This document shows, piece after piece, positions 1,547 through 62,238 of a stretch of 64,000 nucleotides of DNA (position 1 is its first letter; every line of letters begins with the position of its first letter). Made by a program: the position numbers and the translations under genes. The DNA comes from Rhizaria sp. SCN 62-66 (taxonomy: Eukaryota). The stretch spans positions 1 to 64,000 of the forward strand of contig MEDY01000104.1 in NCBI GenBank assembly GCA_001724265.1, read 5' to 3'. The notes below the pieces were generated by a model, which saw only the letters and a program-made list of their open reading frames with translations, was not told the origin of the DNA and searched no databases.

Positions 1547-4500
1547 TCATACGTCTTCGTCATCGATTTGCCCCGGCAACGGCGTCGCCCGGCCCCGAGG
1601 CGTCTGCGTCGCCAGTACGGCATGCGCATGCGCATTGGACGTTGCACTGGCATTGACGCCACCACGCGCGCTCTCATCCCCGTTGCGCGCGTTCCCTGCA
1701 GCAACAGCAGCAGTAGAATCAGACTCGTTGCCGTGTGCCATAACAGCGTTCGTCGCTGTTTTATTGCGGAAACTCGGTAGCCCGGCCTCTAGATCATCCG
1801 CCATTGCGGGCGTAAACCGCGCACTCGCGCGCGCACTGCCCCGTACACTCATATGACCGCCACCAACGACGCCATCGACACCGCCGTTGTTGTTGCTATT
1901 GCCGCCGCCGCTGCCTGCGTTGTCGTGCACCGAGGCCAGCCCAAGCGCGGGGACAGGCCCTGGCGCCGTCGCCGTGACGGCAGCGGTCGTTGCCGAGCCG
2001 GCGGTAGTGCGCCGTTTGCTGTTGAGCAAACCTGCGGGCGCCGGCGGAGTTTCGGTGAGATTGGTGATCGGGTAGCCGCCGCGCAAGTGGCCCAAATGCG
2101 CACTCGCGTTGTTGTTACTGTTACCGCCAGCAACGCCGCGAGGGGTGCCTGTTGGAGTCATTGCAAGCGCTGAATCAGGCCGACGCGGCGGATGCACTCC
2201 ACTTGTATTATTGGCAACATTCGTCGTTGTTGCTGCTGTTGCTCTGTTATTGGCGGGGGCGGCGACGGCGTTGGGCGCGAACAAAGGGAAACCGGGCGTC
2301 GCTTGCCCCGAACCACGGGCACTCACAGGTGCAGCGTTGTAATTGCTTCCTATGTTATTGTTGTTGCTGTTGTTGCTGTTGTTGTTGTTTGTGGTGCGAC
2401 GCCGTGCCGAGATCAGCTCGACAACACCCGCCGTCAGCGTCTCAACAAAGCCCGCTTGCGGCAAGGGAGCGCCAACGCCGGCCTCTTCCTCGGCCGCGGC
2501 AAGCAAAGCGGCCTCTCTGAGCGCCTGGGAGCGGGCAGTGCCGGGCCGGGACATGACTGGACCGCTGACAATACCGCCAACCCCAGTGTTGTTGCTGGCA
2601 CCGCGAGCACTCGATGGACGCGATAACGCACTGTTAGTGGTATTGGTACCAGCGACCCCGCCGCCGCTGTAGCTGTTGCTGGCGTTGCTATTGCCGGCGG
2701 TGGTAGTAGAGTAGGACGAGTGGCCGTGGACCTGCGCGCGTGCTTGCGCATACGCCTGTGTGCCGACGATCGGCGGTAACACAAGCCCAGACGTACCCTG
2801 CCCCTGCTGCCCCGGTCGCTGCGTTTGATGTGCCTGCTGTGGGCCGTAATGCTCGCTGTTGAGCTGTTGCTGCAGTGAAAGCACAGGCCCTGGCGAACGC
2901 GCAGATAACGCTACTGCTGACACTGACGCTGTTGTAGCAGGCGTGACAGCCGGGAAGGCACCGCCACCGCCGCCGTTAATACTGCCACCGTTGTTGTTGC
3001 TGCCAACACCGGTTGCGAACGCGCTGGTACGGCCCGGGGTGTCCCCCCAGACAGCGACGACGTCGTTGCTATTGCGGCCGGTTGTCCCGCTACTGCTGTT
3101 GTTGCTACTGTTGTTGTTTTTGTTGCTGGATGTGCGTGGAGTAACCTCAAAGCGGACTGGGTCGACTGCACCGCCGGCTTGTGCTGTGTCGCGGGGAGAC
3201 CCCGGTGGCGCATTCATGTTTTGACCGAGACCAGCATCGCCACTTTGACGGTGACTGTAGCCGCGACCGAGAGCCGCGGCGTCGGTCGCGTCGACGTGGC
3301 GACGTGCCAGCTCTAGGTGTCCATGTGCAACCGCCGCCGCGGTGCCTTCAGTCGCGGTAGTCGTCGCCCCGGCTGTAATCGCGGCAAGCGCGGGCGCTGG
3401 CGCTTTGGCTGAGTACGACCCAGTCAACGGCTTGGAATCAGGCGGCAAACGGTCAAATCCATCGTCTTCCTCCTCATCCTCCTGCTGCTAATGTTGCGTG
3501 TCACCATCTGGTCCGCCGGCAGTAATAATAAACCCAGGGCCGCCAGGTGTTACGTAGGACCCGCTTGCATTTACACCGCCATTGCCGTTGCCGCTGCCGC
3601 TGCCAATGAAGCCGTAGGCAGACGCAGGCCTGCTGTGGCCGTGGCTGTGCCCGTGCGCGGGTTTGTTGGACATCGAAGCCATCTGAACCGATCCGCTATG
3701 GTGCTGCTCGGCGTCACCAGTCTCCCCCTGATTGCCGTGGCCGTGACCGGTTCGCGTGTGACTGAGCTCGAGTTCGTGCCCTGGATCCTCCATCTCGGGC
3801 TCTGTTTCGCCGGAAGCGGCGGCGCGACGGCGCTCTTCAGCGTGCCTACGCTCAACAATGAGGTCGTACGTGCTGATACCACGACGCCAGAGGTAGAAAT
3901 GCAGCTTCAGCAGGCTCGCGACCTGCCATGCGACCAACAAGGCCAACGCAGCAGGGACGCAGAGAGCAGCGCGTAGCCCCGCCAGTGAAAGTCCGTCAGT
4001 GCCGCAATGCGCGCGCACCCGCAACAGCAGCAGCGCGGCGTCGACGCCGTCGCCGGAGGACGCGACAAGCGCCCAGACGCACGACGCGGCGACCGTGAGC
4101 ATGAGACCGAACACAGAGCAAAGTGCGATGAAAAACGGTTTGTAGTTCTTAGACCCGACGCAAGTGTTAAGCCACACGCAGTGGTGGTCAAAGTCGTGCA
4201 CGCATTTGTTGCACGCGCGGCAGTGTTTTGACCGTGGATAGACGGAGTTGACGCAAAAAACGCACCAACGCATGTCCGAGGGCGTGCTTGCTTCGCGTGC
4301 AGCTCGTGTTTCTTCGCTTTCGCCTGCCCACGCGCGGCGGCCTTCGACGCGACCGTTGGCATCCAGTGGGTTGATGATGGTCGCGGTGGCGGCTGAGGCA
4401 ATGGTGCCGGCGAGGAAAAGATTGTACAGTGCGAGGCAGAGCGCGAGCGGCCAGTCGGGAGGGTATGCGGGGTAGAGAATGGTGTAGAAGAACGCGGTGA

Positions 4501-4603
4501 AGCCGGAGAAGAGAACCCATGAGGTGACTTGGAGTGGGTGTAAGGGAAGCTAAAACCCGGTCGTGCGGATATACAACGCGTCAGGGATCGGGTTCGAGCT
4601 CAT
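1547..4603 (-). CDS. DHHC-type protein S-acyltransferase (ZDHHC1/11 or plant PAT19-22-like), ~1018 aa with a long low-complexity C-terminal tail; contains two in-frame TAG codons (4550-4552, 3488-3490)
   Basis: One continuous frame from ATG 4603 to TGA 1547-1549 if TAG is read as sense. N-terminus RTTGF[TAG]LPLHPLQVTSW resembles the RxxG(W/F)QxPxHxLQV start of this subfamily. Two hydrophobic helices follow, then CVFC..V.PRSKHCRACNKCVHDFDHHCVWLNTCVGSKNY (DHHC-CRD), two more helices and ISTYD (TTxE-like). Confidence 0.9.
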
Positions 4604-5253
4604 TTTCACACGCACAGAAGCGACTAGATCAGCTGTATGAGAGGGTGTGCAGCTACAAGAATGCTCCGAGACGAGGAAAGGTTTCTTCTGCGTTGTAGCC
4701 GCTGTGAGCGGGCGCAGAGAGGGGCACCTAGCGTGCGTGCGATGCCCCGGGGGTCGGTCGAGCGGCGCGACGCGGAAAGCGCGGGGCAAAAAAAGTAGCA
4801 AGGACGCGGGTAGCCCGAAAACTGTGCTCTAAGAGGCACGGCGCGAGGCGACAACGGGTTGCGGCAGTCGAGAACAAGGCAAGGCGATAGGGGTAATCAA
4901 ACGTGAGCCTTTTTGAAACCTAACTTTTAAAAACAAAATTATGTTGCGTATTAATCGTATAAATGGCTGTAACAATGTACTATCACGGATGTAGAATTCC
5001 TGGAATCGGCTTGAAATGTGGCACCAACTTCAAACGGCAACGATGACTCCATCTCTGTAGCCGTTGCAATCAACTGTCCCAACAAACGCTCTCCTGACAT
5101 TTTTTCGAGTCTTATCAGTGATAGTGCAAAGTTTATGTTAGAGATGCGTCGTAAATAGTTTTGAGCTGTATTATTAAAGTCAAATCTTGATAAAGTCCTC
5201 TCTAAATAGTCAAGTTTATAAATCTCAGTGCGACATCATGCGGTGACTTGGTC

Positions 5254-9181: not shown

Positions 9182-9748
9182 GAAAAAATGTCTTGTCGCT
9201 GCGTATCCTGCTTAGTGAGAGAAAAGTGCTGCGGGTAGGAAGAGACAGGGAGAAATAAGAAGGGTGAGCTGGGTGGTCCTTACGTTTCTGCGACTCGATA
9301 AACAACGGTCTGGCACGATATGAAGCAATACTTTCTCGAAGTTCGATTTTGATAATAGAATGAACAAACACAAAAGTATCTATAAAATTGTCTGCATAAA
9401 TGACAACGGCTTTTGTAAGTGAGAAGATGATATTTTCGTCGCATGCACACATCCAGCTGTGGAGATCGGTCTCGGCCGTTTCTCTTCGGCCCTCACCTGA
9501 GGCACTGAGTTTCAAGGCGTATATCTCGCTCAGTCTTCCGACTGAATTCATGATAGCACTATATATATGTGCTCATGTTGCCTTGATGTGTTATTACTCT
9601 TTGCTTTTTGATCTAGCTTTATCCTTTCTTCCCTACCGGCTTCCCCGCGAAACCGCTGACCGGACACCTCACCTCTCAGTCGCGCCCCCCGCGCCCGCTC
9701 CCCTCCCCACCGCCCTCGAGGCCCCCCGTTGCCCGGCCCCGCCTCGCA

Positions 9749-10054: not shown

Positions 10055-10088
<34 letters not shown>

Positions 10089-15241: not shown

Positions 15242-17168
15242 TCACTTCTTAGCCTTGGTCGCGGCAGCGCCGGCGCCCGCGCCGCCGCCGCCGCCAAGAG
15301 TGTTGGCCATGCGGTCCAGCCGGTCTTGCTGCCTCAGCTTATCGATCACCTCACTCAGCCCGGCGCCCGAGAGGAAATCCTCCACCGAGTGGTACGAATA
15401 GTTGATCCGGTGGTCGGTGACGCGCGACTGGGGGAAGTTGAACGTGCGGATACGTTCTGAACGGTCACCAGTGCCGATTTGGGCCTGTTTGAGCTGGGCG
15501 TGTTCGCGGTGTTGGGCTTCGCGGCGAGCAGCGTAGATGCGAGAACGCAAAACGCTCATCGCACGCTCCTTGTTCTTGTGCTGGTTTCGTTCATCCTATC
15601 ATCGCGCATCGCAAAGCAACAACAAGAAAATGAGACAAGAGTGAGTTAAGAGTGAGTTGATTGTTGGTAAAAGAGATAGCGAAACACAAGGCAGATAGAA
15701 TACTGTGTGCATTCAAATAAAGCTTAAATGCAGCATATATTGAATGGATTTTGCTCTGTTTTTTCACGAACCTGGCACTGGACGACGGTGCCCGTGGGGA
15801 TGTGGGTGAGCCGGACTGCGGAATCCGTTGTATTGACGTGTTGCCCACCCGCGCCACGCGCACGGAACAGATCCACACGGATGTCCTGGTCGCGGATCTC
15901 GACGTCCACATCCTTGACTTGCGGGAGGACGGCGACGGTGACTGTGGATGTGTGCACGCGGCCCATCGTCTCGGTCACGGGGATACGTTGAACGCGGTGG
16001 ACGCCCGTCTCGAACTTGAGTTGGCCGAAGACACCGGTGCCTTGGAGGGAGGCAACGGCTTCGCGGTAGCCGTCGAGGTCGTTCTTCGTCAGCTCCATCA
16101 TCTATTGACCACAGTGAAAAACAAAGGAAACCCCAAAAGAGAGTGAAAGTGTGAGTTGAAGCTTGCTTTGAATGTACCTTGACGAAAGCTCCACAACACA
16201 CGTTTTTCGCGAAATAATTGTGAAATTGGCATAAAATGAATCAAAGATCGTTTGTTTTTAGCGGTGAATATAGCTCGTACCTGAAACTTCCACTTCTGCT
16301 GGCGTGCGAACTCCTCATACATATGGAACACTTCACGCGCAAACAGCGCCGCCTCGTCACCTCCAGTGCCCGCGCGCACCTCAAGCAGCGCGGAACGCTC
16401 ATCATCAACGTCCTTGGGGAGAACTTCATCGAGCAGAGATCCCTCGAGGTCACGGAGCTTCTCAGCGGCAGCGGCGAGGTCAGAGTCAGACTGTGCAATG
16501 AGCCCTTCCCAGGATGCCGCGGCCTCAGCGTCAGCTTCGGATAAGTCTGACGCTTGCGTCGAGGGGGGGACGAGGGCACGGAGCTCAGCCTCAGCCTCGG
16601 CCTTCATCGCCGTCGCGTCGGCAAGCTCGGCGCGGGCGGAGCACATCTCGTCCACGATGCCCGCCGCGGTCTACAGCCGCCCCATTTCACGCTGCAGGTC
16701 GACCATGGGCTTATCGGCGAGAGTGGGGTCAAAGGGGGCGACTAGGGCAGCGATGCGGGCGCGGGTTTCAGGCAGATTCGCAGTGTCCGGGTCCGATAGA
16801 AGCTCAGTAACGCGGTTAATGGTGTGGAAGAGCGCGTAGCTGCGGGTGCCGACTTCCCAGACCGTGGCGGGCACGTCACTCTCGTAGGCCACCGCGGAGT
16901 ACGGGAGCACAGCGCTCCACTTGGTCGGCACGGCGTCATCGATCACGGCCGGCTCCGGTGCGGCGGCGGCGGCAGCAGCGGCGCTAGTGCTCAGAAGACC
17001 GGCGCTAGAGTGAGACAGTGACAGCGGCAGGAGATTGCGAGTGTTGTTGCGGGTAAACAGTGAGGATGCAGAGGAGGTGAGTGCGCTGCTGGAGGTAGAG
17101 GGAGTCACAGCCGTGACTGCGCGGCGGCTGAGCGTGGGGGCGCGGGCGAAAAGCGCGCGGAAAGACAT
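15242..17168 (-). CDS. Nucleus-encoded organellar (probably mitochondrial) peptide chain release factor 1, ~523 aa; exons 17168-16281, 16101-15772, 15595-15242; in-frame TAG at 16671-16673
   Basis: R/S/L-rich, acid-free N-terminal presequence. Motifs [33 protein letters not shown] (PxT, RF1 type), GAGGQHVN (GGQ), [31 protein letters not shown]. Two phase-0 GT-AG introns restore the frame. Ends in TGA. Confidence 0.92.
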
Positions 17169-18927
17169 CTTACGGGCCACGAAAAGAGCGATTGTTTGGC
17201 GCGGAGTGGTCAGGTGTTACAGTGCTGCTAGAAAGAGGGAGGAGTGCAGTCAGGAGTGGGGTAGCGTTGGGATTAAAAGGCGTGGGGGGCGAGAGGAAAT
17301 TAGAAGTGAGCTATCACCGGTTAAACAAAGCTAAGTATAGAAAAAATAATATAAATTGTATCTAAGAAGCAAAATCTGCTGTAACAGTTATGTCGCGGAT
17401 CTAATGACGGAAGTTTGAACCTCATGCGCTTTCGATTTGCGGGTGTGCGCAGGGTAGGGTGGGCAGTCTGCAAGCATGACGTGACAGCTGCCTGCTTCGC
17501 GTCAAAATCTCAAAGTAAACGTGAATACAATGCAAAGCACGTTGATATGAGTAGTTGTTGAAGTGATATCGTAATATTAGTGAAAAGTGTATTGTTTATT
17601 CTCGTTTTCGGTGTTGTATCTCGACTTCACATCATATTGCCTCAACATTCACATGAAACAAACAAACCTCGCTTTCCTGTTTGTGACTGGGATACTTATC
17701 TTGATCGTCGCAGCGAGCGTTGTTATTGGTGAAGCGCTGATGTACGCACAGAGCCTGTTCACTGATTGTGAGTCGGCTTGAACTAGAGATATAAGAATGA
17801 AGACGTCGGAAAACAAAGTGGGACAAAGCTAGCGAAACCAGTGACAAACATCGATCAAAGCCTTAATTAAGTCATCAAAGCGTCGGCAATGTTATCGGTA
17901 AAGGAAGTGTACAGGGGCAAGAGACGTGGGAAACAGCGTGATCATACAATGAGTGGTTGTAATCACGGAGCAAGTGACACAGAGAGACAAATGATGAGAG
18001 AAGCAGTAGAAACAACAAACGAAAAAGACACGACAAAAAGACAAGACTTAGTCAAAGAGACGCAGGAAGAGAGTGACAGAAAGACTGAAAGACTGAAAAA
18101 ACAGCATATTATATAAGAACAAAACAAGCGAAAAATGTCTTAAACAAACAGTGAACAAATGCAGCAGGTCGCCAACCCTAAGGTTAGATTCGAGGTAATG
18201 GTGAAACATAGTCATATTACCACGGTGTGTCAACTGCATTTGCGCAGAGTTAGAGAAGCCACAAAGACCACTGGTGACAGCAAAGCCTAAAAAAGGCAAA
18301 GACAGACGTAAGTGCGAACTTATATATCACCATATCGTCATTATTCGACAAATTTTGCGAGTTTAACTTTACTTGTCATTGTCATATCGCGTTAAATCGT
18401 ATCATGCCTTACGTGCGTATGGATCGTATCTTATGTGTAAGGCAAATGATGATATAATCGCACTGAAGAACTAAGAAGTAGGTAGGAGTGAAAATTTAGT
18501 GAAGAGTCGTTGTAATATAAAAAGTCACTATCTTATATCATGAAGGGGGCTTAGTTATCAAGCAAAGCCCTGGCCCGTTTGTTGTTGATGTGTAAGTCAA
18601 ATCAAACCTAATCCAAGCACCCAAGGAAACGAAAAACAAAAACGAGAGAGCACTGTTAACAGATGAGGACAAAGAGCAGGAAAAAAAAAAAAGAAAAAAA
18701 ACATAAGCGATCTGTTGCATCGAGCGCAAAGGAAAAACATTGCAGCTGTTATATCTCATCATACATAACACCCAGTCCAAGCGCATCACTCGCACTGCCG
18801 CAAAATGTACAGCTCCGTAGTAGTCGTTCTTTGTTACTTTTTCTCATATCACAGTGCAAGCACGAGGCAAACGCACGCATCACCCACCCAAGCAAGAGTT
18901 AGATGTTATTGTTATTATTTTGCGAAC

Positions 18928-23171: not shown

Positions 23172-24535
23172 CTTTGGCTAGTCTATGGCACGTAAAATGC
23201 GCAAAAAGAATAGCAAATGGAAAAAGAGAAGGGCAACAGGCGAAATGAAGGCGGTTAGTGTCGCGTTCGGGAGAGACGAGGACAGAGATGAGGTCAGCCT
23301 ACGGCAGAGGTCCAATATGCGTCACAAACGCATGAACTGCCACAATGAATATAATACGAATAGTCTTCCCTGTGTTGTGATTCCAAAAATCATAACTAAA
23401 ATCACAGGTATGGCTCTGGTAAGGGAAAACAGACCGGGCAAAGATGATAGCCCCGATTTGCGGGGGGAGCTCGGCCCTTGCTTGATGCTCAGTCTCGGCT
23501 GAGAGAGAGAAATTCAAGCCGCCGCTCACAGTCTCTCAATTCAACTGCGAAACTCTCTTGTGGCTGTGCGTTTTCCTAGTGCTAGCGAGAAGCATATATG
23601 CGGAAATGGAATGAAATTGATGTAGGGAGGTTTTTATGTGTGGAATTTTTTGGTTTTATTATGGATACGTTTGGCTGGGGCTTTTGCGTGTCGTTAGAGT
23701 GATTTGAGTAGAAACCTAGAAACGCCTTCCTCTTGGCGATATCGTCACCTACGGACGTGTATCTCTGGTCAACGAATGCTCTAATTGAAGTTACCGTCCG
23801 GCAAGATACTGTGAGTGCAGAGACATGCTGCTCTCAAGTCGTTAGCGTCTTATGGTTCAATACTACGACGCTAGACCAGCCGAAAGATTGCTTTGAGGAC
23901 TCCGGCAAGCGATCACATTTGGGATCAAATTGAGCCAGCAACGACCATAACTTCGCTCTGTAGCAGCACAAGCAACAACATAGTCTGTATTCAACCGCAA
24001 TAAAGCATAGAAACGTGGTGGCACGTGTAGAAACCTGGGTGGACGACGTAATTTGTGACGAAATGACAGTTCTCGCCGATGGCAAGTCTCGCTGTGCACT
24101 CAGTAATATATCTGACCGAGGGAGAGTGTATTCGACGTGTCCTGGGGTCAGTAGTCGTCATTTTTTGTATTTCAAAATTGCGAATGGCTGTAAATGCCTA
24201 GCTCTGCTTTGTTTTAAATGTGCATTTTGGAACTGACGATGGAATGCGCGCGTAATTTGGTCCCGAAGGCAGAATGCATAGGAGGCTTCGTCACCTCCTC
24301 TTTCAAACCATTTCTCGTGCATTTTCGTCTGTTAAACCGTGCCCCCTTGCCAACTATTACCTTTTCCTTGAAACATCCTTGTTTTTAACACTCACATACG
24401 CTGTTTTTAATCTATTACACCTCACTCCTGACTCGCTGGTGCGCCTCAAAGCCGCCAAGTCCATCCTCTTTGGCAGGCGTCCCCCTTCGAGCCGCTTCTT
24501 TTCGAGTCCGCTCCGGCCGCCCTTGCTTCCCCCTC

Positions 24536-30500: not shown

Positions 30501-30976
30501 GCGACTTTGACTTCGACGAGGACGATTACGATGACGAGTCCGCTCCTCTCGATGACGCGGCGGCCCTTGCTGCTGACTCCGCGGCTGGCTCCCGCAACAC
30601 TTCCCGCCGCCGCCGCCGCCGCCGCCGCGTCCGCCGCAACAGCAGCGCCGCGCGCGCCCTCGCCGCGGCCAATGCAGCCGCCGTTTCCGACGCCCCCGCC
30701 GCCGCCGCCGCCGCCGTCGTTGCTCCTGGCTCTGGCGCAGGTTCGCTCTCAGGCACGGGCTCGGGCGCTGACTTCGACTCCGCCATCGCTGCCTCGAACG
30801 GCGTGCCGTATCCGAGCGTACACGCGCAAACAGTACAGCTGCAACAGGAGCATTGGCAGCATCATTTGCAGCTGCAGCAGCACTTGCAAGCGCAGGCACA
30901 TGCGCACAGCCGGAGGCTACAGGCGCAGGCGCAAGCTCATCCCTCCGTCGCTGCCGCCGTTGCCGCCGCAGCCGCC

Positions 30977-31018
<42 letters not shown>

Positions 31019-35166: not shown

Positions 35167-35199
<33 letters not shown>

Positions 35200-37529: not shown

Positions 37530-37560
<31 letters not shown>

Positions 37561-40500: not shown

Positions 40501-40801
40501 CTGTGGGGGTGGCACTCCGTCACCTTCGCAGTCCCCTGCTCCCGGCGGCGAAACTACCTCGACTACCGCTACGAGCAAACAACAACAGCAGCAGCTTCAG
40601 CAGCAGCAGTCTAGTTTGCCGCAGTACTTGCGTCTGGCTCTCGTGGTCCACGACCCCGTGTTCGGTGCGCAAGTCACGTCGCACGCGGTGCACGCATTCC
40701 CACGCGTCCAGGCCGCCTGCCGCGCCGCGCTCGCTGCGCTGCTGCAGCAGCCGCCTCCGGTCAGCGGAGCGCCAACGCAAACGCACCCGCAGCAGCAGTA
40801 A
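24536..40801 (+). CDS. Giant single-exon protein (~5421 aa): N-terminal TM helix, MORN repeats, long Q/S/A/N-rich region and C-terminal Trf4/TENT4-type non-canonical poly(A) polymerase; in-frame TAG at 35489-35491 and 37685-37687
   Basis: Three track ORFs (24470-35491, 35492-37687, 37718-40801) share one frame and are separated only by single TAGs. MORN-like: YRGS…GLPHGWGRLNFPDGSIYAGPFAHGRFHGRG. NTase: VFGSATTGLAGPGADLDVLI, ARVPVLKL, CDISF, GGLTSY. PAP-associated: GVLFVEFLYFYGHCFDP and LVVHDP. Ends in TAA. Confidence 0.75.
26141..26190 (+). repeat. 15-bp-period minisatellite (STAAGTACCTCTGGT), ~3.3 copies, in coding frame (STSGV)n
   Basis: ctaagtacctctggt gtaagtacctcaggc gtaagtacctctggt ctaag read directly. 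Confidence 0.85.
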
Positions 40802-49546: not shown

Positions 49547-50388
49547 CAAGGAAGCCCTGTAAGCGCGAGATACGGAAGCGAAAACACGTGGAAAATGTTG
49601 TAGTAAGATGGCAGAAGCAGATGATAAAAGGTCAGAGACGAGAGGCAGGGGTTATTGCAACGATGGCAGTGGCGAGAGCTCGGGTGGAACCGCGCGACAG
49701 ATCACGATGAAAAACGATGGGTAAACATGCAGATCAAGAAACAAAACAAAATGGGGCAACCACAATCCCATGCATTAAATACCAAAACATGTGCTAAATT
49801 CAATTAAACGGTGGTCTGAGCAAGCTCCAAGAGGTGAAAGTTGTGCTCCTTGTCTGCTCTGTCTGCTTCGAAGCTGTCGCACGCAGCGCTGCTGGCTGGG
49901 TTTTTTTGCGAACCAGACCGAGTTCGCTAGTCCTGTTGTTTGGCGCTGTGGTGGACGGAAATCAGGCATGAGATCCCATCTGTGGTGTTCCTGTTTTGCC
50001 GAGTAATAGCGCGTTTGGGGGTGACATTTCTTCTTTTTACTTGCCTTTTAAACCTCATCAGTTAACACTCTCTCTAACCTTGTATCCCCTTAACATCTTC
50101 TTTCCCTCTACATCCCTGCCGATCTCACCAACCCTTCATTACCGCCATCTCGTCCAGCACGCTCCCGTCGGATTCGGCGTCTCCCGCAACTGCACATCCA
50201 AGTAGCATCTCTTTTTTACTTCTTGCCGCGCGCTTTTTACGCGCCCCAAGCCCCCTCTCAAGGGCCTGTCCCCTCAGCAAGCCTCCGCAACAGCTCGCTC
50301 GCAGCCCGCTTCCGTCGCCCCGCTCGCCGCCTCAGCAGTCGCGCTCCCGTTCAGCGCCGCCGCCGCCGCTGCCGACGTCTCTCCGTGG

Positions 50389-51646
50389 ATGAACGCGCTG
50401 CAGATTCTGGATCCCGGGCAGGCACATCTGCACGCCCTGCCACTGCAGCAGCTCGTCCTGAGCGTCACCCGCCGCATCAGCGACCAGTTCGCCGCTCTCT
50501 TCGCCTCGCTCGTCCACGTCGATGAAGCCACGCGCCGCAAGGCGCTGGGCGAGGTTGCCGAGACGTCGCGGCAGCTGCTCGCGCGCGTGCTTGCTGTCGT
50601 CCGCTGGCTCCGCGACGTGGGACCCGTCCGCGCCCGCCTCCCCGCGGCCGCTAGTGCTGTGCGCCACTGTCGCGCGCCCTTAGATACAGCACACGTGTCC
50701 GCGTCAGATCTGCGGAAATACCTCTCCCACTACTCCCACCCCGCGTGGGACTTGCCCAGCGCGCTGCATGTGCTGTCGGCGCGCGGAAACAGGCTTTTCC
50801 CGGCCGCCGTCCAGCTGCGGATGCAAGAGTAGCATGTGAGGCTGATCCAGCAACAACAGCAACAGCAGCAGCAGCAGGGCGGTGTCGTCAGCGCAGTCAT
50901 TCCCAGCGGCTCCCCGCGCGTCAGCCGCGAACTGCGCGCCGCCGTCGAGGCCCGCCTCGCGGCCCTAACACGGCTAGCGCTCCTGCGCAAGCCTCCGCCC
51001 GCGCGGCTCTTCTCTTCCCCGCCTCCTCACTCTCGCAGCGGGGGCGGGGACGGGGACGGCGGCGACGACGTGTACGATGTGGAGAGTGACGACGGTCTGC
51101 GTCTGAGTGTCGGCGCAGATGGCACGCTGCGGCTGTGGCTCCCGAGCGTATTTGTGGCGACGCTGGCGTTGCGTATGCTGTCTGATGAGTATTTTGAGCA
51201 CACGCATCCTCGGCTGCATAAACTCTACGCTACCACTGCCTCCTCTGACAATAGCAACAACGACGACGACGACAATGACGACGACGGCGGTCGCGGCAGC
51301 AGTGATGGTGCGAATGTCAAGGTTAAGAAGAGGAGCAACGCTGTCGTGACAGTAGTGGACGTCTCGCCCGGTTCCCGCGACGCAGTCAGTCGGCTCGCAC
51401 TGGCGGAGGAGAGGCGTGTCGTGTGGCAAGTGCTGCATGTGGCTCTGCTTGTCAACGCCGCCGCGCCGCCGCAAGTCGACACACTGAGCAGCAGCAGTAG
51501 TGACGCCAATGACGACAGCAGCAGCGGCAGCAGCAGCAGCAGCAGTAGCAGCGGCGGGGCTGAGACTGGCAAGCGTAGCCCTGAAGACGACGGCAACAAT
51601 GACAACAATGATGAAAACGCGATTGGCAACAACGATGACAACGACC

Positions 51647-51684
<38 letters not shown>

Positions 51685-54600
51685 AATTACGCTAAAGCCA
51701 CTGCAGGTGCCGGATCTGTGATAACTGCTGCGGGCAAGCGTGGCAGCAAGAAGTCTAGCCGCGTCCCCCCGCAACTTAAGCTAGGCCGCGAGCCGACCAA
51801 TGCGGCACTTATGTCCTCTCTGAACCTCGCAATTGGCAACTGCACCACTGACAAGAACAACAGCAACAAGAACAATAGTACTAAGAGTGGCGGTAAGGGA
51901 AATGCAGTGCGACAGGCGCCTGTGTCACCGGTCAATAGTCATGCTGCGAATATGATCATGGTGATGTTGAACCAGCATCTGCTGCCGCGGCGCCCTGCCC
52001 TCTTACTCTCATCCCCCGCCTCTTCATTATCGAGCCCCAGGCTGGCGGAGGGCAACGCGATCGTCGAAGTCGCGTGCGCACTCGCAGGCGCGGGCGCGGG
52101 GCTGGTCCTCGGCCTGCTATGGCAGCAAGCGCGCGCGCAGGGAGCGGCCGGCGGACTGCTGCTGCTGCCGTCATCTCTGAGCGACACGGAAACCGACTGG
52201 GTGTTGCGGGCGCATCGGGCGCGGCTGGCCGGGGCGGCGGTCGCGGTCACCGCCGCGCCCGCGGCCCCCCTCTCCCACGCCACAGCAGCCTCGACGGCGA
52301 CTGGGACTGCTGCGAACAGCGGCGTCAACAGGGCTGGCGGTTATCCCAACAGCAATAACGTCCTCAATGCCAAGGGCGACAACGACGACGACGATGAGGA
52401 TGAGTTCGGCGTTGGGGGAGACGCCTCCGGCCACTGGCGCGTCTCATTCCCGGACAACGGCAGCCACACCAACCATCATAGCAGCATCACCAGTACGAAT
52501 CTGACTGCGGCGAGTGCTACTGCTGCCTCCGCAATGGCGTTTTGGTTCTCCAGCCCCACAGCGAGCCCGACGTTCCAGACTGCGCTGAGCAGCGCCGTCG
52601 CCGCCGCCGCCGCCGCACGCGCCGCGTCCCCGGCCCCCGCGCTTGTGGCCGTGCTGCAGCCTCAGCGCAGGCTCCGGGTGTACTACTACCTCTCGCTCTC
52701 TTCAGCCTCCGCCTCCGCGACCGCGACTAGCGCCAGACCCCAGAGCCGGGCGGGTGCTGCCTCGGCCTCTGCAGGCAACGCCGCGCATTTCAGTACCACG
52801 GCCGCTGCTACTGGCGTTGGCCACGGCGCCGGCGCCTTGGCCGCGCTGGCGTCATCCGCGCCTTTCCTCGACTTCACCATCGCACCCGCCGCCGCCGCCG
52901 CCGGCACCGACTCCCGCATCGCCGCCGCCGCCACCGCCACCGGCGCAGTCGCCGGTGCAGGCACAGGAGCCGCGTCCGCCGCCGCCGCCGCCTCAGCGCT
53001 GCCTCTGCGCGCGGGCTCTCTCGTCGCGGTGTCGCACTGGCCGCCGCTCGCAGGGCTGAGGCTCGCGGTCGCGCCCGCTGCCCCCGCGCTCGCCCCCCTG
53101 CTCGCGCGCGCGCGCAGGGCGCTGGACCGGTGGCGGCTGCGGGAGCTGAAGCTGTTCCTCCGCGCGGCGCCGGTGCTGGAGAGCTTTCCCGTCGCGCTGG
53201 TGGCCGCGCCGCGGCTGACGCGGTTCGAGGGTCGCTCACTGCAGCTGCGCAACCACGACACTGGCGGGGCAGAGGCGCCAGTGCCGGAGTCCGACTCAGA
53301 GGCGGAGGAAGAGGCCGGTGTCGAGCGCAATGCAGCTGCCAGCTCTGCGGGTGCGAGCACGAGCGCGAGTGCTAGGCGGGTGAATAAGCGCGCGACAGCG
53401 GCTGCGGGGGATGGCGACGAGCGCGCACACCGCCGTGCACGTGCCGTCGGTTCTAGCAACCCTAGCAACAGCAACAAGACGGCTAAAGCTAATAAGGACG
53501 ACAACGATGATGACGATGACGACGGGTATGAGAACGATGATGTTTGGCTCCAACCGCCGCCTCCAGGCACCGCCACTGCCGCTACTGCTTGGGCAATGCG
53601 CACCACCGATAGCTCTAGCTCCATTGCAAGTGCGGGTGCAAGCGACCGCGGGCGCAGCCGCGTCTCTGCGACGACTGCGACTAGTGCAGGCGACCGTGGG
53701 CAGCGCAGTGCCAGGCATGGCCGTGCCCGCGGGTCGCCGGAGCGTGCGCTGGAGCTCGTGGTCACAGTCTCTCACTCGGCCTCGGCCGCGCTCAGTACCC
53801 ATGCTGCTCATGGTCACCCCCACGGCCACGACCGCGATGCCAGTAGCGGGAATAGTAGCAGGCTGCGGCGGGCGCAGATGAGTCGCCACCGGTCCCACGT
53901 GCGGTCGCACATGGCGATGTTATCCGCCCCCACGGCCTCGGCGTCCAGCTCCCACGCCGGCTCAGCCTCTGGAGTGATGCTGCCGACGCCTGTCCTCGGG
54001 GCCTCGTCGCTCTCCGGCGCCAGCGCTTTCAGCATCTCTCACAACAAGCAGCACCAGCAGCAGCGTCGTCGTCGTGCGGCTGCCCGCAGTCACAACAACA
54101 ATAACAACACCGCGGGTGCGCTGCGGCTAACACCGCGGCGGCTTACCTTTAAGATCGAAGCCGGTGCATTCGTGGCCGTTTACGACACCGTCTGCGCCCC
54201 CGCGCGCCCGCTCCTGGTCTCACACTCGACGGCCCCCGGCGGCGGCCTCCGCGCTGCTAATGTCGGTGCGAGCGCGAGGCTGACGTTCGGTGTTCCAGGC
54301 AGCGGCGCCGGCCCCCGCTCCTCTGCCGCTCCTGGTGCTGCTGCTGCGCACGGTCACGCGGCGCACCCGCAGCAGCACGACAGCGAGCTGTCGCCCCTGT
54401 CCATCTTCCTCCAGGCCCCCGCGCGCGCGTATCTGGCCCACCAAGCCCGCGCCGCCGCCGCCGCAGCTGCAGCAGCTGCCGCCGCTGCAGCCGCCCAGCA
54501 GCAGCAGCAGCAGGAGGCTTCTGATCAGCAGGCGCTGGCACCGTTGGGTGGCCGCGTCGGCAGCGGCACCGGCGCTGCTGCTACTGGGGCCGCTGAGCCC

Positions 54601-57600
54601 TTTCTGGCGGCCACGTTGACTGCCGCTCGCCCGCCGCCTCAGTCGTCCGCCGCCGCCGCCGCCGCTGCGGCCGTTGCGGCTGCGGCCGCTGCGGGCGGGG
54701 GCGGTTCAGGTCTGCTGACCCCGGTGCCCAGCGCGACACCACGCTACGGCCACGGCCACGGCGATGGCGTTGGAAGGATGCCTGGGCTATCCCGCATCGG
54801 CTCGTTAGTTTCGACGCAGACCCAGGCGCGACAGGCGCGCGCGCACTCGGTGCTATTGCAACGCCGCGCCAGCACCCTCGCCTTGGCCAACAACAACTAC
54901 TACAACAGCAACAGCAACAGCAACAACGCCGCCAGCAACGGCGGCAACGGTGCAGGGCTGACGGTGGGCTTCGCGCGAGTGGCGTCGATGGCGCCCCGGC
55001 TGGCACTCGCCGCTACCGCGATGCCGCCGCCCCAGCCTCTCAGCAGCGGCAGCGCTGCGCAGGGGCAGGGCCTGGCGCTCGCGCTCGCGCTGTCGTCCGG
55101 GCCCCACCTTGGCTACACGCGCTGCGCCGACTCCTCGGCCGCCAGCCCGACTCCCGCGGGCCCGGGCACGGCTTGGTCGAGCGACAGCGCGCACGCCGCC
55201 GCCGCCGCCGCCGCCGCCGCCGCTGCCGCTGCCGCTGCTGGGGGCGGGGGTGGCGGTGTTGGCAGTGCGACGGCGCTGCTGGTGCTGCAGTCGCCGTTTT
55301 CGTCCGCGAATCCCGGCGTGAGCGAGACTGCCGCGTCGCCAGCGCTCGCACTGGCGCACGCCCTTGCCCGCCGCGCACACAGCCACAGCCAGTCCTGCAG
55401 CCGCAGTCGCCGTCACGATCACGGCTCTGGCCATAAGCGCCGCGACGGGCGTCGCAGCGCCGGCACCGCGGCCGCCGACGCCGACGCCGATGACGCTGCC
55501 GCCGCAGGACTGTTCGTGCTGCGCTCCGACGCCCCCGCCGTCGCCGGGCTCGTGCTCTTGGCGCTGCAGGACGGCGATGCACGCGCGCGCGCCCTCCACG
55601 CGCGCCTCCAAGCCCAAGCACAGGCGCAGGCGCTGTCGCGGTGCCCATCGCAGACGGGCAGTCGCAGCGGCAGCCGCGACGGAAGTCCCGTCGGCAGCCC
55701 TCGTGCTGGTCCTGCCTCCCCCACAAACACGATCACGAGCACGGGCACGGGCACTGGCTCTGCTATTGGATCTGGCTCTGGCAGTCTGAGCTCTACTAGT
55801 TTGACTCATATCGGCTCGAGAACGGGCGCTGGCGCTGGCGCTGGCTCTGTTGCAGGCTCAGGTCAGGGCCACGTCCACGTGCAAGCGCAGCTGCAGCAGC
55901 AACAGCAGCTGTTGCAGCACCAACAGCTTCTGCTCTCCGCGCTGCCCGCGTCGGCACTTGCCCACGCCCCCGCGGCCCACTTGCCGCCGCTGGCAGTGCT
56001 GTACACCTCGTACCTGCTGGCGCGGCCGTCGCGGCTGCTGCTGCTGCCGCTGGCGCTGGCGCTGCTGCGGCACGCCGCCGTGGTCGAGTCGCTCTCGGCT
56101 CTCGCGGTCGCCGCCGGGCTCCGCTGCCAGTCTGCGCTGCCGCACGCCTTCCCGGTCGCGGCCCGCAGCGCAACAACCGCCACCGCTGCGCCCGCCGCCA
56201 ACGCCGCCGCCGCGACCGCTGATGCGAATGCAGATAAGGTCGACGACGATGACGAGGAGGAGGGACGGCATTGGGCGGGGCTGTGGCACGCGCTGCGGCC
56301 TGCCTTCTTGTCCTCTCGCCTGCGTCACCACTCGCCCTTTGATGCTCACGCCAGCGTTAACACGGCCACCGCGAACAGCAGCGCCAGCGCGAGTGCGAAT
56401 GTGAACGGCAATTGCGCTGCAGTGAACGCCGGCTCTGTCGTCAAGGGCGCCTCTAGCTCTAGCGCTAACCCTAGCACTCGTGCGGGTGCTGGCGCGAGTG
56501 CGAGTGGCGCTGCGCTGCCGCTGCAGTTGTTCGATGCGTTCACGCTGTATTTCCCTCTGGCAGCGGCGCCCGGCGCGTACTTGGCCGTGGCCGCGCACGC
56601 GCCCCTGCGCGCTCTCCGCCCCCGCTACCGCGGCGGCAGCGGCGCTAAGCAGCGCAATAGTCGCACTGGCGATGCCAGCAGCAACGGTAGCGGCAGCGCA
56701 AGGCCGCACAGCACCGGGACTGAGAGGGCCGCCCGGGCTCTGGCGCGGGCCATCGATGGCAATAGCAATGCCTCCAGTTCAAGTGCCAGTGTCCGTTCCA
56801 ATGCGGCTCACAATGCTTTAAATGAGACCGAGGTCAAGGGTGAGGTGAAGCGTGAACCTACCAGCGCCAGCGCCAGCGCCAGTGCCAGTGCCAGTGCTGT
56901 GCTTGCTGTGTCGGGCCTGAGTCTGGACGCGTGCCCCGCCGTCACGGAAGTGAAGCCGTTCGCTGGTGCGGAAGTTAAGCCGTTCGCGGCTGGCGTTGTC
57001 TCCGGTCTGGGCGGTGACTCATCAGACTCTGACACTAATACTGGCGATGGCGCTGGCGCTAGTGGCCGCCGCCGCCGCAGCAGCAGCAGCCGGGATAAGC
57101 GGCAGGAGCAGCAGCGGCGTCGTCGGAGCAGTCTCGGTGTCAATACTAGCAGTGGCGTCAACAGTGACGACGACGATGATGATGACAGTCTGTTCGACTG
57201 CCACAGCTCGGACTCGTACACCGAGTCCTCTGACGACGACGGCGGCGACAGCGATACCGATACTGATAATAGCAAGGGCGACGACGACTGCAATGACAGC
57301 GATACTGGAGACAGCGACAGCGAGGTCGATAGCGAAACCGAAGCCGTCGCCGCGTCACTCCGCGCGCGCCGCCGCAGCTGCCCTCTCAGCGGTCCCGACG
57401 GCGGCAACAAACGTTTCCGCAGCCGCAGCCGTGGTGTCGGCGGCCGCTACCTGCGCGCTGGCTCCGCCGCGTCCGCGCGCGCCCCGTACTATCTCGTCTT
57501 TACGGAGCCTGGGTCGCAGACGGTCACCGCGGCGTTTCCGCTCGGCGCCGTGCTGCGCGCGCTCCACGGCACGTCTAAGGACCGGGCCGCCGGCGGTCTA

Positions 57601-60600
57601 AGCACCTCTGCCGGCTGCGCGAGTGTAAGTACCACAGGTGTAAGCAGTACCCCCGAGGTGTTGTTCGCAACGCCTGGCTTCGATACGAGCACGCTAGCAC
57701 TGCTATCCGCATCAGTCCTGCCCAACAACAACATCTACGATAACAACGGCAGCAGCGCTAGTGATGATCGGAGTGACAGTGTGTTTGTGAGTCCCCTGTG
57801 GCGCGCGCTGCCCCGCCTAGCCCACGCCTCAGTCAGCGCGCGCGCTCTGCGCGGGCTGCTCGCGACTGCGGGCGCCGCGGCGGCTGTGCTGGCGCTGCTG
57901 TTCGGCGCCGTGGGCTCGCGCCGAGGGCAGGCCGACGCCGCGGTCATCGCAGTGCCGCACTGCGACTACGCCACCGCCAGCGCCACTGCGCAGAGCGCCA
58001 TGCAACAACAGCAGCCGCAGCAGCGGCAACGGCAGCGGCTGGGGCAGCGGCTGGGGCAGCGGCGGCGTGTGGCGGGGGTACGGCTGGCGCTGATACTGAC
58101 GCAGCCTGAGCTCCAGGGCATGCACCTCTGCGCGCGCTCTCGGGCCAGTGCCGTTGCCGAAGGCGGCAACCCGAGCTTAAACGTTGTCAAGAGCGAGAGC
58201 GACACGCTGACGGCGATGGCTATGAAGGACGATGCTAGTCCAAATGCCGGTACCAGTCATACCAGTGTCAGAGCTAGCGCTAGAGGCGCTGGTGAAGTTG
58301 GTGCTGAGGCTGAGGCTGGTGATGGACGGCTGCGGCTGCGTCGGTCCGCGCCCGCGCTCCTGGTCGACCTCACGCACGCCTACAACTACAACAATTACAG
58401 TGGCGCGATCGGCAACACGAGGAGCTCTTCTGGTAGTGTCACTGCAAATAGCTGTGTTAATAGCAAGAGTTGGGCGTGGGTGTTGCATCCCAACCTCGCG
58501 CGCTACAACTCGCTCGTCCGCGAGGCTAACCCCGACGACAGTGCCGATTCAAGCACGAGCGCAGGCGCTAGGGACAGTTCAAGTGTCAATACTGTTGTCG
58601 GCGCACTGGGCGCCTGCGCTGTAGACATTGGCAGCGACGCCGCAGCCATTGTGCGCGATCTCGCGACCGCCAGCTTCAGTTCCAACCCCAGTAGCACTGG
58701 CAGCGGCGTTGGCAACAGGAAGACTGGTGCTGCCCCGCCGATGCCGCCGACTCTGGTCGCCGCCGCGCTCGCCGCGCCCGCGTCTGGCGCCGCCTCTGCC
58801 TCCGCGGCCGCCGCTGCCGCACTGGCACGCGCCCGCACGCTGCCAGTCGGCCCCGGCTCCCTATCCTCCTCCACCGCCGCTGCCGCTGCTGCTGCTGCTT
58901 CGACGATGATGACCGGCGCCGGTGCTGGTGGTGCTGCGCAGTTGGCCGACGGGGCCAAGACGGGCCCCGGGTCGAGCCTCGTCCGCGCGCGCTTCGCGGC
59001 CGGCATCGCGCTCGCCACAGGCGCCGCCGCCCGCGCCCCGCGCCGGCAGTCACGCTCGCACTCGCAGTGTAATGCAGCGGCGTCGGCGTTGGCGTTGGGG
59101 AGCGTGAATGCTGCGGCGGCGCTGCTGCTGGCCGCGCGCGCCGTTGTGCGGTCTGCCAACACCGTCGCCGCCATCGACCTCGTCAACGCGCGCCTCGCGT
59201 CTGCCGCCGCCGCTGGCAACGCTTCTGATGCTGCTGCTGCTGCTGCGGCGGCGGCGGCTGCTGCCTTCACAGCTGTGCCGCTGACGACTGACGCCCTACG
59301 CGCTGCGATCGGCGGCTCAGCCACCGCCGCCACCGCCTCTGCTTCGGCCACGCTGTCCGCCGCCGCCGCCGCCGCGCCCGCGCCCGCCGCGCTGGCCGTC
59401 CCGGCGGGTCTGCTCACCGTCGCCGCCGCCAGCCCGGCCGCCGTGACGCTCCGCGTGCAGCCCTACGCCGCCGCGGACCTTGCGGGGCAGCCGCTGGTCC
59501 AGCTGGGCGCCGGCGCCGCGGCCGCCGACCCCCTGGCTGCGCACTTCCTGCGGCTGCTGCGGCCAGCCGTTGCCCGCGTGGCGCCTGCGCTGCTGCCGCT
59601 GCTTGCGCCGCCGCCGCCGGGCCGCGAGCGCGCCGCGCCGTACTCCTGGCTCGTGCGCATCGCGCTGTGCGACGGGCCGCTGCCGGCGACGCCCTGCCTG
59701 GCGACGCCCTGCCCGACCCCGCGCAACCCCCAGCAGCAGAAGGGCGGTATCAATGCGCCAGGCAAGCACTCGCAGTCTCAGCAACAGTCTCAGAGTGCTG
59801 CTATTGCTGCGGCGGCAGCGACTGCTGCTGCCGCGCACGTGCTGTCGCGCCCGCGCGCGCGTGTGTTTGCCGCGGCTGGCGGCGCTCTGCGCACGCGGCT
59901 GTCGTCCTTCCCGCTGGCGCTGCCGCAGCGGGCGCACCTCGAGGCGCTACTGTCCGCGCGCGCGCCCGCGCCGTGCCGCCTGCCGGCGCTGGCGGCGGCG
60001 GAGGAGGAGGCGCCACTGGCCCCCACGGCGCGCGCGCTCGCCCGCGCCGCCCCGCTCAGCTCGCACCCCGCGGTCGTGGCCTCGCGCAAACGCCTGTCAA
60101 GCACCGACAGCAAGAGGAGCGCAATGAACGACGACGGCGACGATGATGACGCTGACGACGATGCTGAGACTGGCCATAACAACAAGAGTCAGGATCAGAC
60201 TGCTAAGACTAAGAGCTCTGCTTTTTCTGCTGCGGCTGCGGCCGACTCTGCGCGGGTGCGGCTGCCCGCCTCGGTGCTCCCCGCAGCTTCAGCGCCGCCG
60301 GCCGGTCTGTACAGTCTGCTGGAGCACCTCGCGTTAACGCACCGCGCCGCCCCCGCGCTGCACCTGTTCCCTCTGCTCGTCGCCTACTGGGCCGTGCGCG
60401 CCGGTACGCCTCTAGCCGCAGCCACGGCGGCGCTGGCGCCCGCGGGGCAGCCCCACCTCACGCCCGCGGCCGCCGCGTCGATTGTGACGACCGGGATCGT
60501 GCCGGGGCTGGCCCCGCCGCCGCCGCCCGTCACGCTGTCGGCACTGTCGGCCACGCGCCTCGCGCTCACGGTAACCGCCAGCAACAACGCCAAACACGCA

Positions 60601-62238
60601 AGCAGCGGTCACGGCGGTGGCGTCGTGACAGAGACGCACTCGCTCGTGCTGGCGAGCCCGCTCGGCTATACACTCGCTGTTTCTAACAGCAGCACCAGTG
60701 CGGCGGCACCGGCTAAGCCGCCGACGCTGCTGCCGGCCGGCGCGCTGCTGCTTTCGCTCACGCTGCTCTATCTGGGCAACGCGACCGCCGCGGCCGTGCA
60801 GTCTCTTTCCGCCCCCGTGGCCTCTGGACAGGGACATGAGAACGGGCCGGAGGTGTCGGTGCTGGCCTCTGGCAGCGGCGGCGGCGCGGCTAACGCAGCG
60901 GCCCGGCACGCCGTTGAGCTCGTCATCGCGCCCACCAACGCCGCCGCGGCTAACAACGCTCCAGCGACCCGCAGCGGCGGCAGCGGCGCGGGCAATGGCG
61001 CGACGCTGGGGTTCGTCGTGAGGCCGACTAATACAGCTGCCGCTTCTGCGCTCGCGGCCGCGGGCGTGGGCGTGGCGCAGCTCGAGGCGCTGGGCGCGCT
61101 GGCGGGCGCGCGCTTCACGCTGCCTTTGGCCCACGGGGCCGGGCGCGGGCTCGCGCTGCTCCTGGCGCTGCCGCCGCCGGCCCTGGCAATTGCCGCGACC
61201 GTGGCCGACTTCGAGCGCGCGCAGGCCCGCCGCGTGGCCGAGACCGCGGCCGCGCACGGGCTGCAGCTCGCCAACGCCGCCTGGGCCACCAACACGAACG
61301 CGAATAGTGTCATCAGCAACACTGCCAACGGCGCTGCTGCGAGTGCGGGTGCGAACGGTAAAGGGCAGCTGCTGGGGGTCAGCATGGGCGGCTTCGTCCC
61401 GATTCTGCTCGAGATGGCGCTGGGGCTGCCCGCGCCGTGGGCGCCGCACTACGACCCCGCCGCGGAACTGCTCTATCTCACGCTTGCGCTCCACGCTGTC
61501 GCGCCTGCGCACGTGCCAGGTACGCTCTTTAACCGTGCTCAGAGCAACGATGGCTTTGCTTTGGATGGATATATCTCGACAGAACATCGACATACTAGAG
61601 CAGTATTTGAATAGTATCTTCATCTTAATGTTTAATACTTCATCTCACTATATATTTTATATTATTTAATATATTTGTTTGATAACTACTCCACTTTAGG
61701 AACGCGCTCTCGCCGCGCCGCCCCCAGCGCCGCCGCGACCGCAGCCGCCTTCGCCGCTCTCAGCTCAAGCACTTACACTGGCGCTGGCGCTAGTAGTGGC
61801 GCCACTGGTGTGGCAGCGCGCGTGCGGACGGTGTACCACACGCACGGCGCGACGCTGCTGCTGCCTGTCGCCATCGACGCCACCACCACTAGCAATATCA
61901 GCGCTCCGAACGGAGTTTCTGGTGGCAGCGGCGGCGGTGGTGGCAGCGGTCGTGTTGCGGGGTGTGTGTATCTGCTGGAGATGGTTGAGACGCCGCTGGT
62001 GGCGGGGCCGCCCGCGCGGGAGCTGCACATCTCCCTCTCGCGTCTCCTCAACACGACAGCCCAACGCCCGAACAACAGCGCCAGCAGCAGCACCAGCGGC
62101 GGCAACAACGCTGCTGAGGGCGCTGGCGCTAGCGGTGGCGGCGCGGGGCTGCCGCTGATGCAGTTGCTGGGGGTGCTCACGACGCGCCCGCTCGAGGACC
62201 TGGTCGCCATCATCAGGGACGAGCTCTGGAGGAGGTGA
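50389..62238 (+). CDS. MED14: Mediator subunit Med14 (Rgr1)-like, greatly expanded (~3889 aa); exons 50389-61519 and 61700-62238; in-frame TAG at 50830-50832
   Basis: N-terminal LPLQQLV…DEATRRKAL…SRQLLARVLAVVRWL…PAWDLPSALHVLS…RLFP, and after the TAG, ARLAALTRLALLRKPPP…SVGADGTLRLWLPSVFVATL; together these follow the Med14 N-domain pattern. An AT-rich phase-1 intron 61520-61699 (GTACGC...TAG) restores the frame. Ends in TGA. Confidence 0.75.

Follow-up and report, generated by a model that had tools for sequence, protein, structure and literature searches.

Six in-frame TAG codons suggest that UAG is read as an amino acid, with UAA and UGA as the stops, in a eukaryote from wastewater

Few nuclear genetic codes are known in which UAG alone has been reassigned, the described cases including those of Iotanema, the rhizarian exLh, the phyllopharyngean ciliates, and some other ciliates, and these codes bear on how UAG can be captured while UAA stays a stop. 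The code of Iotanema spirale (Fornicata) we take to be NCBI table 15 (TAG = Gln). Here we describe six in-frame TAG codons in four genes of a 64-kb stretch of DNA, positions 1 to 64,000 of contig MEDY01000104.1 (deposited as Rhizaria sp. SCN 62-66), the whole of which we call the window. The best explanation, to which we give a probability of roughly two in three, is that UAG specifies an amino acid and that UAA and UGA end translation.

The term "genetic code 15" occurs in the excerpted text of PMC9523058. According to the available portion of PMC5304391, I. spirale reads UAG as glutamine (Gln) and UAA as a stop, a transfer RNA (tRNA) for Gln with the anticodon CUA is predicted, and the assignment is based on many UAGs at conserved Gln columns together with a likelihood test. 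The same portion gives UAG as leucine (Leu) in exLh, a relative of the Sainouroidea, on the strength of conserved Leu columns and 384 UAG codons in 71 genes; the in-frame stops of exLh are all UAG, and the codon is avoided in its highly expressed ribosomal protein genes. For both organisms, the argument made there is that a CUA-anticodon tRNA can decode UAG and leaves UAA alone. Extracts of PMC11687900 report that independent UAG-to-Leu and UAG-to-Gln changes have occurred several times among phyllopharyngean ciliates, with UAA as the preferred stop; these cases were mined from genomes derived from metagenomes, two of them with genes for suppressor tRNAs, and UAG is widely used. In an oligohymenophorean ciliate, UAA and UAG each stand for an amino acid of their own, as stated in an excerpt of PMC10553269.

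The six codons in the window lie at 4550-4552, 3488-3490, and 16671-16673 on the minus strand and at 35489-35491, 37685-37687, and 50830-50832 on the plus strand. An earlier reading of the DNA made from its letters alone (the sequence-only reading) had reported six in-frame TAGs in four genes and had claimed that the frames stay open beyond them. All six are where it placed them, in the same frames and with matching peptide contexts, and after five of the sites, the frame does remain open, for 646 (TAG 3488), 190 (TAG 16671), 731 (TAG 35489), 1037 (TAG 37685), and 3593 (TAG 50830) codons. With TAG read through, the frames span 1547..5029 and 16098..17216 on the minus strand and 24389..40801 (5470 codons) and 49972..61635 on the plus strand. 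Over 13 long exon segments comprising 16,150 codons (~48 kb), we counted six in-frame TAGs and no frameshift; TAA and TGA, which at rates similar to that of TAG would have spoken against the earlier reading, occurred in frame 0 and 0 times. The other two frames of the same segments contain 210 TAG, 240 TAA, and 585 TGA codons in 32,274 positions (stops, 3.2%). The six TAGs (0.04% of the codons counted) compare with 843 CAG and CAA codons, so the earlier remark that TAG is very rare beside the Gln codons was accurate, as was the claim that the sites are GC rich and unlike the AT-rich introns: the G+C content (GC) within 50 nucleotides (nt) on either side of the TAGs is 0.54 to 0.68, which is coding-like, versus 0.31 to 0.38 for three verified introns.

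Since the way the gene models are drawn accounts in part for their lack of internal TAA and TGA, we ran a six-frame control, in which we recorded every lone stop codon with an open stretch of 150 codons or more on either side. Thirteen such junctions were found. Five are coding-frame sites (site 4550, with too short an upstream stretch, fell outside the control), TAG in every case; the remaining eight, found in GC-rich genes on antisense or off frames, consist of six TGA and two TAA codons and no TAG. The exact probability of the split, 5/5 versus 0/8, is 1/1287 by hand calculation.

Two of the TAGs fall in a gene for a DHHC palmitoyltransferase with a ZDHHC1/11-like N terminus (1547-4603, minus strand; 1018 codons ending in TGA, with no intron observed; Pfam PF01529, E 1.6e-25). 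TAG 4550 is codon 18, counting from the start codon at 4603, and stands inside the conserved motif R-x-x-G-F-[TAG]-x-P-L-H-P-L-Q, in the context TGF-[TAG]-LPL. In an alignment of 20 of the 40 listed matches, chosen for a query coverage of 91% or more and with the window's own fragment left out, the invariant residues R13, G16, P20, and Q25 flank the TAG without a gap and one residue occupies the site in 20/20 homologues. The spacing of the invariant columns is kept only if TAG 4550 gives exactly one residue. The next Met is residue 111, past the first two membrane helices, and all four transmembrane helices and the DHHC motif lie downstream of this TAG.

TAG 3488, which is followed by CAG CAG, is codon 372 of the same gene and separates the catalytic domain from a tail of 646 codons. 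The relative P0161, with 62% identity across the domain, was called as one uninterrupted open reading frame (ORF) of 679 amino acids that includes both the domain and the tail motifs EAGVGAP, HLRGGYPI-NLTETPPAP, ADDLEAGLPS, and LPGQ-DD, all of which come after TAG 3488 in the window. Because P0161 joins domain to tail in one ORF, the 646 codons after TAG 3488 belong to the same protein; opposite the TAG itself, P0161 has a gap. The P0161 gene call begins at the match to window residue 26, eight codons past TAG codon 18, and judging from this alignment, its species may have a stop or an intron at the position of codon 18. We looked for the DNA of relatives. When metagenomes were scanned with ARP1, 80 loci came back, of which the top one had 61% identity, with neither the window's organism nor P0043 among them, and scans of genome contigs with P0044 and P0161 and of viral contigs with P0161 returned no relative.

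TAG 16671 interrupts a gene for a mitochondrial RF1-type release factor (15242-17168, minus strand; three exons, stop TGA; Pfam PCRF, E 2e-21; RF1 in PDB, E 3.6e-15), which is the sole release factor in the window. Intron 1 of this gene occupies 16102-16280 (minus strand); intron 2 was recognised by eye. The TAG, codon 166, lies in domain 1, with the PxT and GGQ parts downstream, in the peptide context GRL-[TAG]-TAA. For the alignment, we used 17 of the 150 listed matches, those with a match start no later than about residue 170, and left out two fragments of the window's own gene. Both flanks align (the 3' flank reads TAAGIVDEM in protein), and one residue occupies the site in 17/17 homologues. 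The region aligning to solved RF1 (residues 227-293 and beyond), with the PVT and GGQ motifs, is downstream. With both flanks aligned and one residue needed, TAG 4550 and TAG 16671 are neither spliced out nor skipped.

A separate feature of RF1 exon 1 is found at 16540-16584 (minus strand), where contigs from two DNA runs (X1 and X3) and an RNA run (X6) bear a joint that skips 43 bases (AT..AG). The skip sits in a GCTGAGGC-type repeat encoding AEAEAE, with flanks of only 20 bases, and an artefact of the repeat or a variant in length may account for it; a loss of 43 bases would break the RF1 frame.

TAG 35489 and TAG 37685 both belong to a gene for a giant low-complexity protein with a C-terminal nucleotidyltransferase of the Cid1 family (non-canonical poly(A)/poly(U) polymerase type; 24536-40801, plus strand). 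The first of them, in a low-complexity region rich in Q, H, and N, is preceded by 3700 open codons, and the frame after the second ends at TAA. The sole recognisable domains, NTP_transf_2 (residues 945-1013) and PAP_assoc (residues 1612-1642, both numbered from 35492), come after both TAGs. TAG 50830 lies in MED14 (50389-62238, plus strand; Pfam Med14, E 6.9e-8; MED14 in PDB, E 1.8e-4), four residues past the part alignable to solved mammalian MED14. That part corresponds to only the first ~180 of ~1450 residues in mammals, and everything past ~147 residues of the window's protein lies after the TAG. MED14 exon 1 continues to 61519, the intron at 61520-61699 contains a further TAG at 61612, and exon 2 ends with TGA at 62236. 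Apart from DHHC codon 18 and RF1 codon 166, the sites (four in all) sit in unalignable sequence, and the surroundings of four of the six are Q rich and of low complexity. Catalytic domains lie downstream of the TAGs in three of the four genes. Taken together, the six TAGs are real, they lie within coding sequence, and each is needed as one residue for the four proteins to be whole.

The nucleotidyltransferase (~5,400 codons) and MED14 (~3,900 codons) owe their inflated size to extended stretches of Q, N, S, A, H, and D. In both, GC-rich DNA codes for poly-N and poly-Q, which is an uncommon combination.

Of the twelve gene ends, seven are TAA and five are TGA. The sequence-only reading had counted six of each; its numbers needed correcting, and its statement that no gene ends in TAG stood. 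ARP1 ends in VVFRKTF followed by TAA, with the same end in two relatives, as expected from the earlier proposal that UAA is a true stop, and the DHHC protein ends in LPGQIDDEDV followed by TGA, where P0161 ends in LPGQVDD. From these comparisons, UAA and UGA appear to act as stops at conserved C termini.

DNA of this uncultured organism occurs in sequencing runs of six studies of bioreactors, wastewater, and activated sludge, these habitats being taken from the descriptions of runs that held 0.74 to 0.95 of the sampled words. Contigs of four runs were compared with window positions 1-20000, a range that covers sites 4550, 3488, and 16671, and no run that covered these three TAGs had a variant letter at any of them, in answer to the question of assembly error that the sequence-only reading had left to the reads. 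A contig of run X1 spanning 2402-8540, and with it TAGs 4550 and 3488, has no differences; X1 may be the window's own source. Run X4 comes from another study and a slightly different strain. One of its contigs (3319-4195) spans TAG 3488 with no differences, and another (16322-18671) has nine single-nucleotide polymorphisms (SNPs), the nearest at 16710, and keeps TAG 16671. In the polyadenylated metatranscriptome X6, a contig spanning 3407-3675 has no differences and shows TAG 3488 unspliced and unedited at a depth of about 2. For RNA splicing or editing, this contig would point to an intact TAG at one site, subject to its low depth and to possible DNA carry-over. Among the rows listed, 3488 is the one TAG with an RNA contig, and no contig of X3 or X4 spans site 4550, which speaks neither way. 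Of 28 strain SNPs listed, 19 are in coding segments, 6 of them synonymous and 13 not; they are too few, and too often in low-complexity sequence, to gauge selection after the TAGs.

Protein fragments bounded by the TAGs recur in a public collection (Logan, ENA, JGI) for sites 3488, 16671, 37685, and 50830. The DHHC fragment ending at TAG 3488 is present on three contigs, the RF1 fragment ending at TAG 16671 on four, a 1022-amino-acid fragment starting at the first ATG past TAG 37685 on seven, and a 147-amino-acid MED14 fragment ending at TAG 50830 on three contigs from two sources; site 35489 has no recurring fragment. That the TAGs are translated is, in our judgment, very probable, and that UAG is a sense codon throughout the organism and has ceased to be a terminator is probable.

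Which residue UAG specifies can be approached at the two alignable sites. The column of TAG codon 18 in the 20 DHHC homologues holds Glu eight times, Arg five times, Gln twice, and Thr, Lys, Ser, His, and Asn once each; that of TAG codon 166 in the 17 RF1 homologues holds Glu four times, Thr three times, Gly, Gln, and Ala twice each, and Arg, Asp, Lys, and Ser once each. No hydrophobic residue appears in any of the 37 rows. Both columns look exposed, polar, and variable, a pattern that would fit Gln or Glu and would not fit Leu, Trp, or Tyr. The CAG CAG that follows TAG 3488 and the Q-rich surroundings of four sites fit an origin of TAG from CAG and prove nothing. If UAG is a sense codon, we give Gln an even chance of being its meaning, with Glu next and Leu unlikely. 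The sequence-only reading had proposed Gln as the probable residue: a sense codon in polar columns agrees with it, and the residue at both sites is variable and accommodates Glu as well.

Mechanistically, UAG would be read by a tRNA whose anticodon is CUA, which would leave UAA unread; such a tRNA could arise most simply from tRNA-Gln(CUG) by one anticodon change, and an eRF1 with poor recognition of UAG would probably act alongside it. Four well-conserved housekeeping genes (EF1B, ARP1, TBCB, and the helicase) are free of TAG, and the bases after the six TAGs are C, C, A, A, C, and C, never G, although G opens 41% of the codons in the window's genes. Together with the rarity of UAG, these observations suggest, as a hint from six codons, that the codon is decoded with low efficiency or that termination still competes for it, as in a weakly used or early-stage reassignment. 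A more specific possibility, which we regard as doubtful, is that a novel lineage, common in wastewater reactors, persists in a long-lived stage in which UAG has ceased to be a terminator and is a rare sense codon, with a low-capacity CUA tRNA serving ~0.04% of codons and UAG shut out of highly expressed genes and favored before C. The interruption at codon 18 may then be conserved across species, given that the P0161 call starts eight codons later; if it is conserved, selection keeps UAG, or a special residue, there.

Several observations weigh against UAG as a sense codon. The sample, six codons from 64 kb of DNA, is small, and so is the set of 12 gene ends that lack TAG. The zero count of internal TAA and TGA is partly circular, gene models being bounded by those codons. 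With this codon usage (CAG 624, GAG 399, AAG 316, and TCG 291 among the codons near TAG), 61 to 64% of nonsense hits by single substitution are expected to be TAG, and 6/6 TAG under random nonsense has a P value of 0.05 to 0.07, which is marginal alone; the earlier argument from TAG-only in-frame stops is weaker for it, while the underlying count of 6/0/0 held. The variability of the two alignable columns would leave Gln, Glu, and Lys inseparable. As called, P0161 is without the R-x-x-G-F-x-x-P-L-H-P-L-Q motif. The read comparison covers three of the six sites (35489, 37685, and 50830 are outside it), site 4550 is covered by X1 alone, which is possibly the window's source, and the X6 contig could be carried-over DNA, there being no spliced X6 contig among the rows listed. 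ARAGORN found no tRNA gene in the window, and no eRF1 gene lies there. Moreover, EF1B, described below, looks damaged, whether by a deletion in the assembly, by a real lesion, or as a pseudogene, and the assembly or the genome thus has at least one flaw. Finally, UAG use of 0.04% is unlike that of exLh and also fits leaky termination.

Leaky termination is the rival that survives best, although we consider it unlikely. It holds that the code is standard, that UAG is the third terminator elsewhere in the genome, and that the six premature stops are read by a near-cognate tRNA, such as tRNA-Gln. The extreme rarity of in-frame TAG (6/16,150) speaks for it, and the sequence around the TAGs would suit it as well, with four of the six sites in Q-rich DNA, TAG 3488 directly before CAG CAG, and a C at the +4 position in four of the six and G in none, whereas 10 of the 12 genuine stops have a purine at that position. 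Near-cognate readthrough, however, usually amounts to a few percent at most. Premature stops stand in 4 of the 12 genes, far above what chance tolerance would allow, and TAG ends none of those 12. In yeast, Q-rich messages with Q-x-Q flanks have premature stops read as Gln, as described in an extract of PMC13192750, but TGF-[TAG]-LPL in the DHHC enzyme and GRL-[TAG]-TAA in RF1 are without Q-rich flanks and precede all functional parts of their enzymes. Nor is there a stimulatory RNA structure: none of the six 123-nt stretches 3' of the TAGs folds better than its shuffles (z, -0.71 to +1.53).

A programmed readthrough element (a stem-loop, or a structure like the selenocysteine or pyrrolysine insertion sequences, SECIS and PYLIS) was considered and rejected, the downstream regions holding no structure and only the loose +4 C bias (4/6). 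Recoding of the pyrrolysine or selenocysteine type was dropped since no recoding element lies 3' of the TAGs; we know of no precedent for pyrrolysine in eukaryotes. A search for Rfam families in the 64-kb window found none.

Artefact or damage, in the form of errors of assembly or sequencing, null alleles, or recent pseudogenes with CAG-like codons mutated to TAG, is a very improbable source of the six codons. The codon usage given above would make TAG the likeliest nonsense codon under it, and the window does contain a flawed gene. EF1B (~22510-23170, minus strand) follows yeast EF1B-alpha as far as HQIIPL (chain position 50), after which ~11 residues of the exchange domain are missing, between the IPxG and EDDKV-like parts; its end, VSTDWMEETISELPGVGSVEIAAFNKI (with the conserved AAFNKI) followed by TAA, is in another frame, the shift lying near 22600 with no room for an intron. 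Stops, however, make up 2.3% of substitutions, and six of them imply ~260 substitutions in 48 kb, plus indels; since we found no frameshift, no TAA, and no TGA in 16,150 codons, random damage is ruled out. Independent samples show 0 differences over kilobases or about one SNP per kb, a strain with SNPs nearby keeps TAG 16671, and ORF ends at the TAGs recur on three to seven contigs from several sources. The genes hit, moreover, include essential single-domain ones (mitochondrial RF1 and MED14).

A change at the RNA level, whether through tiny in-frame introns or through U-to-C editing back to CAG, is barely credible: the window's introns do end in TAG or TTAG and a 33-nt in-frame GT...TAG can be drawn by eye at 16671, but the DHHC and RF1 flanks align with one residue needed and nothing cut out, real introns are 179 to 193 nt long with a GC far below that of the sites, all six cuts would have to be stop-free multiples of three, and the X6 contig carries TAG 3488 unchanged and unspliced.

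The window is eukaryotic nuclear DNA with a GC of about 0.5 to 0.72, in which exons are GC rich and intergenic DNA and introns are AT rich. At least 12 genes were recognised by Pfam, PDB, and sequence comparison. Besides those described above, they are a BBOF1-like coiled-coil protein (5254-8220, minus strand, 988 codons), a small low-complexity protein (8327-9211, minus), a two-exon low-complexity protein (~9617-14930, plus), an ankyrin protein (18928-20646, minus), TBCB (last exon 42240-43220, minus), a DEAD-box helicase (43715-47254, plus), and ARP1/centractin (last exon 48192-49283, minus). Three introns were verified (12947-13139, 16102-16280, and 61520-61699), and all three begin with GTACG(A/C) and end with (T)TAG; their 5' signal and length are unusually uniform, which might aid placement of the lineage. 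The N-terminal coiled coil of the BBOF1-like protein has no Pfam match and resembles ESM Atlas clusters of basal body-orientation factor 1/DUF4515 (score, 0.93 to 0.94; 178 to 188 features in common), a lead, based on this likeness, that the organism may bear cilia or flagella. At the window's start, positions 1-700 have 10 to 40 times the depth of the rest of 1-20000 in 3/3 DNA runs and carry several variants at 349-573, which suggests a repeated or mobile element.

The best named matches to the DHHC protein come from a dinoflagellate, a stramenopile, a haptophyte, and a ciliate, at 28 to 35% identity, and ARP1 is 56 to 62% identical to many protist sequences, with relatives at 80% (P0043) and 72%. 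In the literature, supplements being outside the scope of the search, we found no report of a eukaryote from wastewater or activated sludge in which UAG is a sense codon, which is no proof of absence. Gene calls made with the standard code have already split genes at TAG in public collections (P0001, P0214, P0215, P0364, and P0365), and eukaryotic metagenome-assembled genomes from wastewater would therefore be mis-annotated. If UAG is indeed a sense codon here, a GC-rich, non-ciliate-looking organism that uses it at low frequency would be a natural example of an early or weakly used stage, the point at issue between the codon-capture and ambiguous-intermediate models.

How does the window compare with the described systems? 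The low-level miscoding of yeast under a standard code, to the extent that the extract of PMC13192750 describes it, shares with the window stops in Q-rich sequence and no dedicated element, and differs in that two of the window's sites precede all domains without a Q-rich flank and that no gene ends in TAG. With the phyllopharyngean ciliates, as represented in the extracts of PMC11687900, the window has in common a probable reassignment of UAG only and an origin in metagenome-derived DNA. Unlike them, it uses UAG rarely, and it consists of 64 kb of contiguous, multigene DNA with a GC near 0.6 and giant low-complexity genes, features that would make it unlike a ciliate macronucleus. It resembles exLh in that UAG alone would be reassigned and all in-frame stops are UAG, whereas UAG is rare here (6/16,150 codons) and, set against the conserved Leu columns in the available portion of PMC5304391, none of the 37 homologue rows has a hydrophobic residue at the TAG columns. 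As in I. spirale, only UAG would have changed, UAA is a terminator, and a tRNA-Gln with a CUA anticodon is the predicted mechanism; the window, unlike that case, offers six sites, two of them alignable, from a GC-rich wastewater organism with AT-rich introns. The window thus probably represents a further case of UAG-only nuclear reassignment, a kind already described.

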